A stretch of DNA of 31,047 nt. It comes from Escherichia coli. Lineage in GTDB: Bacteria; Pseudomonadota; Gammaproteobacteria; Enterobacterales; Enterobacteriaceae. Each line of letters opens with the position of its first letter. The first letter of the stretch is position 1. The translations under genes were made by a program, and so were the position numbers. The notes under the pieces were generated by a model. The model saw only the letters and a program-made list of their open reading frames with translations. It did no database searches and was not told the origin of the DNA. Below are positions 2,149 through 6,817 of this stretch, piece after piece. Location of the stretch: assembly GCF_003334815.1 (NCBI RefSeq), contig NZ_QOWO01000043.1. The stretch is one strand, 5' to 3'.

Positions 2149-3438
2149 ATGAAAGTATTAGTGATTGGTAACGGCGGGCGCGAGCACGCGCTGGCCTGGA
2201 AAGCGGCCCAGTCGCCGCTGGTTGAGACTGTTTTTGTTGCTCCGGGTAATGCAGGCACTGCACTGGAACCCGCGCTGCAAAACGTTGCTATTGGCGTGAC
2301 CGATATCCCGGCGCTGTTGGATTTCGCACAAAACGAAAAGATTGATCTGACCATCGTCGGCCCGGAAGCGCCGCTGGTGAAAGGCGTGGTCGATACCTTC
2401 CGCGCCGCCGGGCTGAAAATCTTCGGCCCAACCGCAGGTGCGGCCCAACTGGAAGGCTCAAAAGCGTTTACCAAAGATTTCCTGGCCCGCCATAAGATCC
2501 CTACGGCGGAATACCAGAACTTCACCGAGGTAGAACCTGCGCTGGCGTATCTGCGTGAGAAAGGCGCGCCAATCGTCATTAAAGCGGACGGTCTGGCTGC
2601 CGGGAAAGGCGTTATCGTGGCGATGACGCTGGAAGAAGCGGAAGCGGCTGTTCACGATATGCTGGCGGGCAACGCTTTTGGCGACGCGGGTCATCGCATC
2701 GTTATCGAAGAGTTCCTCGATGGCGAAGAAGCGAGCTTTATCGTGATGGTGGACGGCGAGCATGTGCTGCCGATGGCTACCAGCCAGGATCACAAACGCG
2801 TAGGCGATAAAGATACCGGACCAAACACCGGCGGGATGGGCGCTTACTCCCCCGCGCCGGTAGTAACCGATGACGTTCATCAGCGCACCATGGAACGTAT
2901 TATCTGGCCAACCGTGAAAGGCATGGCGGCGGAAGGCAACACCTACACCGGTTTTCTCTACGCGGGCCTGATGATCGACAAACAGGGCAATCCGAAGGTT
3001 ATTGAATTTAACTGCCGCTTTGGCGATCCGGAAACCCAGCCGATTATGCTGCGCATGAAGTCCGATCTGGTTGAGCTCTGCCTGGCGGCCTGTGAAAGCA
3101 AACTGGACGAGAAAACGTCCGAGTGGGATGAACGCGCTTCTCTCGGCGTGGTGATGGCTGCGGGTGGATATCCGGGTGATTACCGCACCGGTGACGTGAT
3201 CCACGGCCTGCCGCTGGAAGAAGTGGCAGGCGGCAAAGTGTTCCACGCGGGCACAAAACTGGCGGATGACGAGCAGGTAGTGACCAACGGCGGGCGCGTA
3301 CTGTGCGTCACCGCGCTGGGTCATACCGTGGCAGAAGCGCAGAAACGCGCCTATGCCTTAATGACCGATATCCACTGGGACGACTGCTTCTGCCGGAAAG
3401 ATATCGGCTGGCGCGCTATCGAACGCGAGCAGAACTAA
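2149..3438 (+). CDS. purD: Phosphoribosylamine-glycine ligase (GAR synthetase)
   Basis: 429-aa ORF starting MKVLVIGNGGREHALAWK; ATP-grasp family; GGAG SD upstream; 11-nt gap after purH indicates an operon. Confidence 0.97.
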   Translation: MKVLVIGNGGREHALAWKAAQSPLVETVFVAPGNAGTALEPALQNVAIGVTDIPALLDFAQNEKIDLTIVGPEAPLVKGVVDTFRAAGLKIFGPTAGAAQLEGSKAFTKDFLARHKIPTAEYQNFTEVEPALAYLREKGAPIVIKADGLAAGKGVIVAMTLEEAEAAVHDMLAGNAFGDAGHRIVIEEFLDGEEASFIVMVDGEHVLPMATSQDHKRVGDKDTGPNTGGMGAYSPAPVVTDDVHQRTMERIIWPTVKGMAAEGNTYTGFLYAGLMIDKQGNPKVIEFNCRFGDPETQPIMLRMKSDLVELCLAACESKLDEKTSEWDERASLGVVMAAGGYPGDYRTGDVIHGLPLEEVAGGKVFHAGTKLADDEQVVTNGGRVLCVTALGHTVAEAQKRAYALMTDIHWDDCFCRKDIGWRAIEREQN

Positions 3439-4760
3439 CGCGACAGTTTTGCCAATAGCGTTTTGCGCGTGATCCCTAACTGACGGGCGGCTTCGGTTTT
3501 GTTGCCGCCCGTTTTCTCCAGCGCCGCCAGAATCACCTCTTTTTCCACTTCCACCAACGGCTGAATATCCTGACTTTGTCCCAGCGGGATCGGCGTACTG
3601 GCAATCGCCAGCGGCAGCTCGCGTTCGGAAATATATTCCCCGGTCAGCAGCACCACTGCCCGTTCCACCGCGTTTTCCAGCTCACGAATATTTCCCGGCC
3701 AGTCGTAATGAATCAACAGATCCATCGCCTGGGGCGTAAAACCTTTTACCGCCTTGCGATTACGCTCGGCAAAGCGCTGCAGAAAATGGCCAGCCAGCAG
3801 AGGGATATCTTCCCGCCGTTGCCGCAGCGATGGTACTTCAATCGCCACCACATTCAGGCGATAGTAGAGATCCTGGCGAAAACGCCCGGCATTCACCTCT
3901 GCGGCAAGATCGCGATGGGTCGCCGCAATCAGCCGGACATCAACCGAGATAATCTGGTTGCTACCGACACGCTGAACTTCGCGCTCCTGAATCGCACGCA
4001 GCAGACGCACCTGCATCATCGGCGAGATATCGCCAATTTCATCGAGAAACAGCGTGCCGCCGTCCGCCTCAACAAAGCGCCCTTCCCGGCGTTTATCGGC
4101 TCCAGTAAACGCCCCTTTTTCATGACCGAACAATTCAGATTCCAGCAAGGATTCGTTGAGTGCCGCACAGTTGAGCGTTACCAGCGGTTTTTCGCTACGT
4201 GCGCTACTGGCGTGAATCGCCCTGGCGACCAGCTCTTTACCGGTGCCGGAATCGCCGTGGATCAGTACCGTGGCTTCCGATGGCGCGACGAGGGCGATTT
4301 CACTGAGCAGGTGTTGCATCGCCGGGCTTTTACCGACCATACCGAACTGGCTGGCAGTCACCGCAGGTGTTTCAGCATCAATACTGTGCGTATGCGCGAG
4401 CGCTTTTTCCAGCGTCGCCTGTAGGTTATCGAAATCCAGCGGCTTGATGAGATAATCCAGCGCCCCAGTTTTCAGTGCCTCTACCGCCGTCTCGACGCTG
4501 GAGTACGCAGTCATAATCAGCACCGGAATTGCCGGGTTTAACGCTTTGATCTCTTTCAGCGTGGCGATGCCGTCCATCTCCGCCATTCGCACATCGCAAA
4601 GCACAAGATCAAAAACCTGTTCCCGCACCTGCTCCAACGCCTGTCGCCCGCTGTTCGCCAGCGCGACGTTATAGCCCCAGCCGCGCAGTAAAGCCTGCAA
4701 AATAGTGCAGTGGCTAATGTCATCATCCACCACCAGAATATCGATATTATCGTGCGTCAT
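3435..4760 (-). CDS. zraR: sigma54-dependent response regulator (NtrC family), zinc/envelope-stress system
   Basis: 441-aa ORF with receiver domain, AAA+ sigma54-activator domain including the GAFTGA motif ([17 protein letters not shown]), and C-terminal HTH; 4-bp overlap with zraS. Confidence 0.95.
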
Positions 4761-6154
4761 CCTTGTGGGTCCTTACGCGTAATATTGACCGGAAGCCAGA
4801 GGGTGAACGTTGAGCCTTTTCCCTCCTGGCTTGCGACCTGAATTGTACCACCGTGTTGTTCAACAATATTATGCACGACCGCCAGCCCCAATCCGGTGCC
4901 TTCGGCTTTAGTGGTGAAGTACGGAGTGAAGATGGCATCAAGCTGATCTGCCGCAATTCCCTTACCGCTGTCGGTAACGCTGATTTTCACGCCCGCGCCG
5001 CTTTCGCTGGCCGTCACGCTAATCACGCCATGCTGACCAATCGCCTGAATAGCATTGAGATAGAGATTCAACAGGACCTGAGTCAGCCTGTCCGGGTCGG
5101 CCTGAATTTCCGGTAATGTGTCGTTGGCGGTAAAGCGTAACTGGATCTCCCGGCTGTTTGCATCCTGACTTACCAGCTGTAATGAGTGGTTAATCAGCGT
5201 GTTGAGATCCACCGCCTGCAAAGCCAGATGCGTTGGCTTAACCAGTTCCAGCAACTCGCTTACCACGCGGTTTAAACGGTCGGCCTCTTTCGCCATCACC
5301 TGCGCCAGTTGATGCGCTTCTCCCCCTGCAGGCGCGCGCTCGGCAAAGTATTTCGCCAGTCCTTTAATCGAGGAAAGTGGGTTACGGATTTCGTGGGCAA
5401 CGCCTGCCGCAAGATGCCCCAGCGCCACCAGCTTCTCTTTGCGCTTCATTTCATCTTGTAGAAGCTGGCGCGAGCGCAGATAGCGGCGATACCAGAAGAA
5501 TGACAATACGCTTGCCAGCAAGACCGTCGCCAGGGCGAAGAGGATAATCAGGGTATTGCGCTTTTCCCCACTCTGGGTTGCAACCAGATCACTGGCATCA
5601 ACGGCGATAAAAATAGCCTGTTGTGCATCTACTTGTGGCACAGCTTTGCCGTTACAGCGCGGCATATTGTGCATTCCATGCCGCCAGGGCGCTGACATTG
5701 GCTGGAACAAACGATAGACCTCAAGTGCAGGCGTAGTTTCCGTTTTCCCAAGCAGCCGCCAGCGGGAGTTTTCCTCTGGCTTTAATTTCTGCATTTCATC
5801 CGGCGAATAGAGCGCACGCCCGACCTTATCGGGGTCGCTATGAAGAATAATGATGCCCTGCGCATCGGTGACTGCGAACCACAACACTCCCGGCTGTCCC
5901 GCCATCTCTTCCAGAAGCGCCTGTTGCTGTACATGGTGCATTCGCATCCCCATCCCTACGCGGCTTCCCGACTCCAGAGCGCGGATAAGCACATTACCTT
6001 TTTCCAGTAATGCCTGGCGGTCTGCCTCGCTTGCCCGCCCATAATCACGAATCACAGTTACCGCAAACAATCCCACCAGCCCAACAATGACCACGGGGAG
6101 GATCGCGCTTAACCATTTAGCTAAGGAGTCTTTAGAACGTTGCATAAAACGCAT
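4757..6154 (-). CDS. zraS: Sensor histidine kinase of the ZraSR two-component system
   Basis: 465-aa ORF; N-terminal TM segment, periplasmic domain, second TM, H-box (HEIRNPL) and HATPase domain (GTGLGL). Confidence 0.95.
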   Translation of the reverse strand: MRFMQRSKDSLAKWLSAILPVVIVGLVGLFAVTVIRDYGRASEADRQALLEKGNVLIRALESGSRVGMGMRMHHVQQQALLEEMAGQPGVLWFAVTDAQGIIILHSDPDKVGRALYSPDEMQKLKPEENSRWRLLGKTETTPALEVYRLFQPMSAPWRHGMHNMPRCNGKAVPQVDAQQAIFIAVDASDLVATQSGEKRNTLIILFALATVLLASVLSFFWYRRYLRSRQLLQDEMKRKEKLVALGHLAAGVAHEIRNPLSSIKGLAKYFAERAPAGGEAHQLAQVMAKEADRLNRVVSELLELVKPTHLALQAVDLNTLINHSLQLVSQDANSREIQLRFTANDTLPEIQADPDRLTQVLLNLYLNAIQAIGQHGVISVTASESGAGVKISVTDSGKGIAADQLDAIFTPYFTTKAEGTGLGLAVVHNIVEQHGGTIQVASQEGKGSTFTLWLPVNITRKDPQG

Positions 6155-6184
6155 CTTCTTCTTTGCCTGCTCATCCCTTTCTGA

Positions 6185-6201
6185 CAGCAGAAATCATGCC
6201 A
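6185..6201 (-). promoter_or_regulatory. sigma54 (-24/-12) promoter for zraSR
   Basis: Minus strand reads TGGCATgatttcTGCTg, with GG and GC at the canonical -24/-12 spacing. Confidence 0.65.
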
Positions 6202-6252
6202 TCTTTTATCAGCGCTTACCCTGCGCTGTAACACAAAGGCTTAAGTTTCAAT

Positions 6253-6298
6253 GAGTAAAAATGACTCGCTACCCGCAGCAGGCGAGTCATTTTTACTC
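6253..6298. promoter_or_regulatory. Upstream activating sequence: perfect 17-bp inverted repeat (GAGTAAAAATGACTCGC, 12-bp spacer), probable ZraR binding site
   Basis: 6253-6269 is the exact reverse complement of 6282-6298; located between the divergent sigma54 promoters of zraP and zraSR. Confidence 0.7.
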
Positions 6299-6340
6299 GT
6301 TTATCATGCCAGATTACCCGTCATATCAGCGTTTCATCGT

Positions 6341-6356
6341 TGGCACGGAAGATGCA
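6341..6356 (+). promoter_or_regulatory. sigma54 (-24/-12) promoter for zraP
   Basis: TGGCACggaagaTGCA matches the sigma54 consensus TGGCAC-N5-TTGCA; about 35 nt upstream of the zraP start. Confidence 0.75.
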
Positions 6357-6391
6357 ATACCCGAAGTAAGACAACCACTGGAGGATTAACC

Positions 6392-6817
6392 ATGAAACGG
6401 AACACGAAAATTGCCCTGGTAATGATGGCGCTTTCAGCAATGGCGATGGGATCGACATCTGCATTTGCTCACGGCGGACACGGTATGTGGCAGCAAAATG
6501 CCGCGCCTTTGACCAGCGAACAACAGACAGCGTGGCAGAAAATCCATAATGACTTTTACGCTCAAAGCAGCGCACTGCAACAGCAACTGGTGACGAAGCG
6601 TTATGAATACAATGCCCTGTTAGCCGCGAACCCACCGGATAGCAGCAAAATTAACGCGGTCGCCAAAGAGATGGAGAATTTGCGTCAGTCGTTAGATGAG
6701 TTACGGGTGAAACGAGATATCGCGATGGCTGAAGCGGGTATTCCGCGCGGAGCCGGAATGGGCATGGGCTACGGCGGCTGCGGTGGTGGCGGTCATATGG
6801 GTATGGGCCACTGGTAA
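6392..6817 (+). CDS. zraP: Periplasmic zinc-binding envelope-stress chaperone
   Basis: 141-aa product starting MKRNTKIALVMMALSAMAMGSTSAFA (signal peptide) with GGAGGA SD at 6380-6385; Gly/His/Met-rich C-terminus. The ORF-track start at 6251 is an in-frame over-extension through the promoter. Confidence 0.93.
   Translation: MKRNTKIALVMMALSAMAMGSTSAFAHGGHGMWQQNAAPLTSEQQTAWQKIHNDFYAQSSALQQQLVTKRYEYNALLAANPPDSSKINAVAKEMENLRQSLDELRVKRDIAMAEAGIPRGAGMGMGYGGCGGGGHMGMGHW

Follow-up and report, generated by a model that had tools for sequence, protein, structure and literature searches.

Two mirrored ZraR sites between divergent sigma-54 promoters in the zraP–zraSR control region of Escherichia coli

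The DNA analysed here, a stretch of 31,047 nucleotides referred to as the window, belongs to E. coli and corresponds to the reverse complement of positions 4177033-4208079 of K-12 MG1655, to which it is 99.8% identical (69 mismatches, 0 indels). Coordinates were converted with the relation K-12 = 4208080 - window. Three genes frame the region of interest:

3435 to 4760, minus strand: zraR, sigma-54-dependent response regulator with REC domain, AAA+ domain carrying GAFTGA, and Fis-type HTH
4757 to 6154, minus strand: zraS, sensor histidine kinase (K-12 annotation), with a 4 bp overlap with the zraR start
6392 to 6817, plus strand: zraP, zinc-binding periplasmic chaperone that modulates ZraS by feedback (K-12 annotation)

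The products of all three genes scored above the cut-offs of the corresponding NCBIfam equivalogs, with 994.8 bits for ZraR (cut-off 760), 841.6 bits for ZraS (cut-off 479) and 274.4 bits for ZraP (cut-off 200). These scores, and the 100% identity of the zraS–zraP spacer to that of K-12 MG1655, bear out the naming of the two divergent units as zraP and zraSR in a preliminary description made from the sequence alone. The spacer length of 237 bp given there is exact: it spans 6155-6391, between the zraS ATG at 6154 (minus strand) and the zraP ATG at 6392 (plus strand). The 351 bp around the repeat discussed below were found in 5421 of 5426 complete E. coli genomes. Regarding the regulator, the Pfam domains Response_reg, Sigma54_activat, AAA_lid_14 and HTH_8 were identified in ZraR, and its translation shows the GAFTGA and Walker A motifs. 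A protein combining REC, a sigma-54 AAA+ domain with GAFTGA and HTH_8, as expected of a cognate activator, is thus encoded close to the spacer, at 3435-4760.

Two further observations concern the coding ends of these genes. A 24-bp palindrome, CACCAGAATATCGATATTATCGTG, lies at 4731-4754 in the first zraR codons, beside the 4-bp zraS/zraR overlap. In E. coli AR_0061 (locus L001, 593-650), and also in strain MDK9L1, 29 bp are duplicated in tandem (GAGGATTAACCATGAAACGGAACACGAAA), so that the ribosome-binding site of zraP and its first six codons are present twice; this creates an upstream open reading frame of 8 codons whose TAA falls inside the second ribosome-binding site.

Pattern matching located one -24/-12 element on each strand of the spacer:

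6185 to 6201, minus strand: PzraS, sigma-54 promoter, TGGCATgatttcTGCTg, with GG at 6200/6199 and GC at 6188/6187 (pattern match)
6341 to 6356, plus strand: PzraP, sigma-54 promoter, TGGCACggaagaTGCA, with GG at 6342/6343 and GC at 6354/6355 (pattern match)

Written as element strings, these read TGGCACGGAAGATGCA at 6341-6356 (plus strand) and TGGCATGATTTCTGCT(G) at 6201-6186(5) (minus strand). Both carry the GG and GC doublets of sigma-54 promoters at a distance of exactly 10 bp, face their genes and leave short leaders. Setting GG as -24 and GC as -12 predicts transcription starts at about 6367 for PzraP and about 6175 for PzraS, with leaders of 25 nt and 21 nt, respectively. The pattern TGGCAY-N6-TGCW occurs three times in the window against 0.39 expected, a number reached by none of 100 shuffles. 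The third exact match, TGGCAC-N6-TGCT (TGGCACCGGGCGTGCT) at 23696-23711 on the minus strand, falls within rpoB on its sense strand and is unrelated; the main text of the E. coli sigma-54 ChIP-seq paper makes no mention of rpoB (PMC4591121).

For comparison, 42 orthologous loci were collected from Escherichia, Citrobacter, Salmonella, Klebsiella, Kosakonia, Kluyvera, Phytobacter, Pluralibacter and Trabulsiella, and their spacers were aligned with that of the window, giving 43 spacers from 9 genera. The strict PzraS pattern was kept at 41 of the 42 orthologous loci, with columns 6185-6203 at least 95% conserved, and the strict PzraP pattern at 40. The columns between the -24 and -12 elements of the promoters are likewise at least 95% conserved across the orthologous spacers. 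Published binding data point to the same two elements. The E. coli sigma-54 ChIP-seq study lists the motif TTGGCACGGAAGATGCA for zraP (OS38) and ATGGCATGATTTCTGCT for zraS (OS39), at 39-fold and 9-fold above threshold, and the distances given in that list, 25 and 21, equal the leader lengths predicted here (PMC4591121). Orthologous motifs were reported by sigma-54 ChIP-chip in Salmonella (PMC3844500), and genomic SELEX with the RpoN holoenzyme gave a peak within the zraS–zraP spacer (PMC8743547). The divergent -24/-12 elements proposed on both strands in the preliminary description are therefore confirmed by the pattern statistics and by the ChIP-seq and ChIP-chip data.

The -24 element of PzraS has a partial copy elsewhere in the spacer. 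The 9-mer ATCATGCCA at 6303-6311, a second copy of 6193-6201, adjoins the right ZraR site described below and reads TGGCATGAT on the minus strand, which is the PzraS -24 element. As an extra promoter this copy was rejected, being specific to Escherichia and without a -12 partner. One locus, from a Pluralibacter metagenome-assembled genome (L032, 2240-2510), keeps both ZraR sites while both of its -24/-12 elements depart from the strict pattern: the zraP element reads AGGCAT…TGCT, the zraS element has no GC at -12, and the zraP start region differs. This zra locus may be decaying or rewired.

Between the promoters lies an inverted repeat with perfect arms of 17 nt, GAGTAAAAATGACTCGC at 6253-6269 and GCGAGTCATTTTTACTC at 6282-6298, separated by 12 nt (6270-6281). 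At 95% complementarity the repeat reaches 20 nt (6250-6269 and 6282-6301), and it ranks first among the inverted repeats of the 31-kb window. Another palindrome in the window, near-perfect and 38 bp long (GCGTTAGCTGAGTTTTTCG/CGAAAAATTCAGCTAACGC, 478-515), has a PurR-box-like sequence (gcgcaaacgttttcgt, 425-440) on one side and the start codon of purH (548) on the other. Searches of the window with Rfam families identified a TPP riboswitch upstream of thiC, the sRNA sroH and P26 upstream of the rplJL region, in the segments 11800-11900, 17593-17753 and 27089-27150; all are expected for this K-12 region, and no Rfam family matched in the zra region.

Across the 43 spacers, only four blocks are strongly conserved: the two promoters (PzraS at 6185-6203 and PzraP at 6340-6358) and two 17-mers at 6252-6268 and 6283-6299, each offset by one base from an arm of the repeat. 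The features between the promoters can thus be laid out as follows:

6216 to 6238, no strand assigned: partly conserved block, TTACCCTG-N7-ACACAAAG, at -41 to -63 of PzraS
6252 to 6268, plus strand: left ZraR site, TGAGTAAAAATGACTCG, consensus YGRGTAAAAATGACYCR, PWM score 28.8 bits
6269 to 6282, no strand assigned: linker of 14 bp between the 17-mers, holding the 12-bp spacer 6270-6281 of the preliminary description
6283 to 6299, minus strand: right ZraR site, CGAGTCATTTTTACTCG on the plus strand, consensus read on the minus strand, PWM score 31.2 bits, the maximum

Placed in a common orientation, the two 17-mers of the 43 spacers share the consensus YGRGTAAAAATGACYCR, in which positions 4-14 are nearly invariant; positions 1 and 15 vary as Y, and positions 3 and 17 as R. 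Each 17-mer is an imperfect dyad of the form 7-N3-7 (YGRGTAA-AAA-TGACYCR), palindromic at 5-6 of 8 pairs; the right one in E. coli contains CGAGT-N7-ACTCG. The left-site core GTAAAAATGAC is identical in 40 of 43 sequences and the right-site core GTCATTTTTAC in 42 of 43. The two 17-mers are mirrored in every sequence compared. The linker is unconserved in sequence and held at 14 to 16 bp in length, so that the site centres lie 31 bp (n = 26), 32 bp (n = 15) or 33 bp (n = 2) apart, or approximately three helical turns. No third or auxiliary ZraR site was detected: with a PWM built from 86 sites, the next best score in the 31 kb was 6.5 bits, and no consistent extra site appeared in the 43 spacers.

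Judged from this alignment, the functional units appear to be two 17-bp sites 14 bp apart, always mirrored. Leonhartsberger et al. in 2001 (J Mol Biol 307:93) reportedly described the ZraR/HydG region as "two inverted repeats separated by a 14 bp spacer", a wording with which the 17-14-17 arrangement agrees exactly. A literature search found no paper quoting that description of the inverted repeats. The perfect 17-bp repeat with a 12-nt spacer, as preliminarily described, is correct to the base as a string; as the recognition unit it gives way to the two 17-bp dyad sites.

A palindrome of this quality could also act as nucleic acid, as a DNA cruciform, a hairpin or a terminator, instead of as protein-binding sites. 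In favour of such a role, a single strand of the element is predicted to fold strongly (-18.8 kcal/mol; z = -8.3 relative to shuffled sequences). The role would nevertheless require pairing between the arms to be maintained, which the comparison did not show. Complementarity between the arms ranges from 12 to 17 of 17 positions among the 43 spacers and drops to 12-16 of 17 in most taxa. The inter-arm covariation score, 0.066 against 0.063 for shuffled data, was reached by 157 of 500 shuffles, and the variable inter-arm positions showed no compensatory change (Fisher p = 0.47 and 0.21). Moreover, no terminator-like site was found in 6100-6450, and the element lies upstream of both predicted starts and would thus be transcribed from neither promoter. 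We consider a cruciform, hairpin or terminator extremely unlikely and rejected it: pairing is not kept by compensatory changes, and a terminator-like site is missing from the region. The lack of covariation between the arms favours protein-binding sites over a hairpin. Selection does not act on the perfect 17/17 match of the arms in E. coli as such, and the larger palindrome results from the head-to-head placement of two consensus sites. Within the sites, covariation of positions 3 and 15 as a sign of dimer symmetry was not significant (p = 0.21 and 1.0).

Published data place ZraR on these sites. The strongest ZraR ChIP-exo peak, K-12 4201786-4201818 with a signal-to-noise ratio (S/N) of 73 (PMC7657598 supplement), maps to window positions 6262-6294, centred on the repeat and over the inner halves of both sites. 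In genomic SELEX, the zra spacer was the single high-affinity target of ZraR, recovered in 81 of 86 clones (PMC8249747). Deletion of zraR in the presence of ZnCl2 changed zraP by a log2FC of -12.7 and zraS by -3.2; without zinc, zraP dropped by 5.6 log2 units and zraS had a log2FC of -0.02 (PMC7657598 supplement). The ChIP-exo, SELEX and zinc expression data agree with the statement, also made at the outset, that this is the established ZraR-dependent architecture.

Two features of these datasets deserve a separate mention. A second ZraR ChIP-exo peak, at 6382-6407 with an S/N of 34 (PMC7657598), covers the start codon of zraP and its ribosome-binding site, from +16 to +41 relative to the start predicted for PzraP. 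The PWM found no ZraR motif under it, and it may reflect an indirect cross-link via a loop or RNA polymerase. Secondly, as basal zraS expression is unchanged in the zraR deletion, some sigma-54/ZraR-independent transcription of zraSR must exist. A sigma-70 promoter was considered as its source and set aside, no sigma-70-like promoter candidate having been found in 6100-6450.

The position of the sites relative to the promoters was then derived from the predicted starts. The left site is centred at 6260, at -85 from PzraS and -107 from PzraP, and the right site at 6291, at -76 from PzraP and -116 from PzraS. Since the centres are 31 bp, or about three helical turns, apart, both dimers should lie on one helix face, and two dyad sites that are phased in this manner and lie within the range of about 70-150 bp upstream of sigma-54 promoters have the properties of an NtrC-family enhancer. 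The zraP–zraSR control region of E. coli very probably contains one ZraR enhancer between two divergent sigma-54 promoters. The same pair of sites most likely serves both promoters, as these are the only ZraR sites found with the PWM and both operons depend on ZraR.

The distance from the right site to PzraP distinguishes Escherichia from the other genera. The centre of the right site lies 51.5 bp from the GG of PzraP in Escherichia and 61.5-63.5 bp from it elsewhere. On the zraS side, the other genera have 59.5 bp between the PzraS GG and the centre of the left site, which makes their layout nearly two-fold symmetric. By comparison with loci L008-L044, the stretch from the right site to the -24 element of PzraP is shorter in Escherichia by about 11 bp (10-12 bp), in the region corresponding to window positions 6300-6340. 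This deletion is a lineage-specific loss of approximately one helical turn, and a change of one turn fits looping activation that depends on helical phase.

A different arrangement would be two dedicated enhancers, in which the left site would act mainly on PzraS and the right site mainly on PzraP, the mirroring of the sites being a matter of each facing its own promoter. In most genera the proximal sites are indeed similarly placed, at 59.5 and 61.5-63.5 bp from the -24 GG, and the constant mirroring means that each proximal promoter meets the same site orientation. However, activators of the NtrC family act as hexamers, for which a single dimer site is normally insufficient. The spacing of 31-33 bp is also held while the linker sequence drifts, which argues that the sites cooperate, and a single ChIP-exo peak bridges both. 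A paper on NorR, another activator, reports that it requires all three of its sites (PMC2831303). We judge a division into dedicated enhancers to be unlikely and retain the site pair shared by both promoters.

Activation might further require IHF, or another regulator bound between enhancer and promoter, as at the pspA or nif promoters. No exact IHF consensus (WATCARNNNNTTR) is present in the zraS–zraP spacer. One IHF-like match with one mismatch, TATCAGCGTTTCA at 6324-6336, could be taken as a candidate; with 0.45 such matches expected it is at chance level, it ends 5 bp from the -24 element, and the stretch around it is unconserved and partly deleted in Escherichia. The 12-bp spacer and flanks of the repeat, where the preliminary description suggested looking for an IHF site, contain neither an exact nor a conserved match, and the linker sequence is unconserved. 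A literature search found no report of IHF at the zra locus. On the zraS side, the block at 6216-6238 is partly conserved, with several columns at least 80-95% conserved across the 9 genera, and nothing comparable is present on the zraP side. Neither the IHF consensus nor the ZraR PWM matches this block, and another factor could bind there. In addition, published RNA-seq showed that deletion of baeR alters zraP expression. On balance, a requirement for IHF or a further regulator seems improbable, and activation by the ZraR site pair is the reading that we follow below.

Based on these elements, the following sequence of events can be proposed. Zinc, lead or envelope stress would activate ZraS, leading to phosphorylation of ZraR. 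Phosphorylated ZraR dimers would occupy 6252-6268 and 6283-6299, both on one helix face, and would nucleate an AAA+ ring. The ring would then loop to the sigma-54 holoenzyme waiting in a closed complex at PzraP or PzraS, and ATP hydrolysis via the GAFTGA loop would open the promoter. The output is asymmetric, very strong for zraP and modest for zraSR, and gives positive autoregulation combined with ZraP-mediated negative feedback. Within this scheme, we infer both the assembly of a hexamer on two sites and looping without IHF.

This locus corresponds to the HydG/ZraR region described between zraP and hydHG (zraSR) (Leonhartsberger et al. 2001; RegulonDB/EcoCyc), the spacer being 100% identical to that of K-12. 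The divergent sigma-54 promoters and the ZraR-bound inverted repeats of the published region are the same, and no difference was found in the window. A 2016 review on Salmonella still gave the ZraR enhancer sequence as not known (PMC4987338).

Among other sigma-54 systems, the closest likeness is with NtrC at glnAp2: both activators have a REC–AAA+–Fis-type-HTH architecture and bind 17-bp sites of the form 7-N3-7, and in both regions a pair of strong sites occupies one helix face at a distance of about three turns, with looping, proposed for zra, that needs no obligatory IHF site. At glnAp2 the 17-bp dyad sites, both of them strong, are located near -140 and -108. Compared with these, the ZraR enhancer is nearer to its promoters (-76 to -116) and serves two divergent sigma-54 promoters instead of one. 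The centre of the ZraR sites is an asymmetric A5 tract that does not vary, the sites are mirrored in all cases, and weaker auxiliary sites were not detected.

The hyc–hyp region controlled by FhlA resembles zra in having divergent sigma-54 promoters that share an intergenic region and one enhancer-binding protein, and hypA and zraP are both among the sigma-54 ChIP-seq targets. The two regions differ in their activator and in its site (CATTTCGTACGAAATG for FhlA). Whereas hyc–hyp uses IHF and separate upstream sites, zra has two sites and no conserved IHF site. PspF at pspA (UAS I/II) offers another parallel, with two adjacent activator sites, a sigma-54 promoter, divergent genes and a response to envelope stress. 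There, a sigma-70 promoter drives pspF itself, and looping at pspA is aided by IHF; in contrast, both divergent zra promoters are of the sigma-54 type, and an IHF site was not found.

A more far-reaching reading would take the mirrored sites as a self-contained, IHF-independent bidirectional enhancer; we regard it as tentative and rather doubtful as a whole. Phased intrinsic bending may then come from the A5·T5 centres of the sites, which are invariant, asymmetric and spaced by about three turns, and one ZraR ring may alternate or partition between two waiting sigma-54 holoenzymes. If it were true, the deletion in Escherichia (51.5 bp against about 62.5 bp) would have retuned the partition towards zraP, and a looped contact would have left its footprint at 6382-6407, as the second ChIP-exo peak.

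The zra control region is an already characterised, conserved and ordinary regulatory region; the initial observation is confirmed and its interpretation supported. What is added here is incremental and consists of the cross-genus consensus, the spacing rule, the lack of covariation between the arms, the absence of an IHF site and the one-turn loss in Escherichia. The current understanding of the zra system is unchanged, and the result mainly confirms that a genuine regulatory module can be recognised from raw sequence. The zra promoter is used in zinc and lead biosensors. The consensus and spacing rules could guide the engineering of the spacer and could aid the annotation of ZraR enhancers in Salmonella, Klebsiella, Citrobacter and their relatives. 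The zra region provides a compact natural example of one bacterial enhancer that very probably feeds two divergent sigma-54 promoters.
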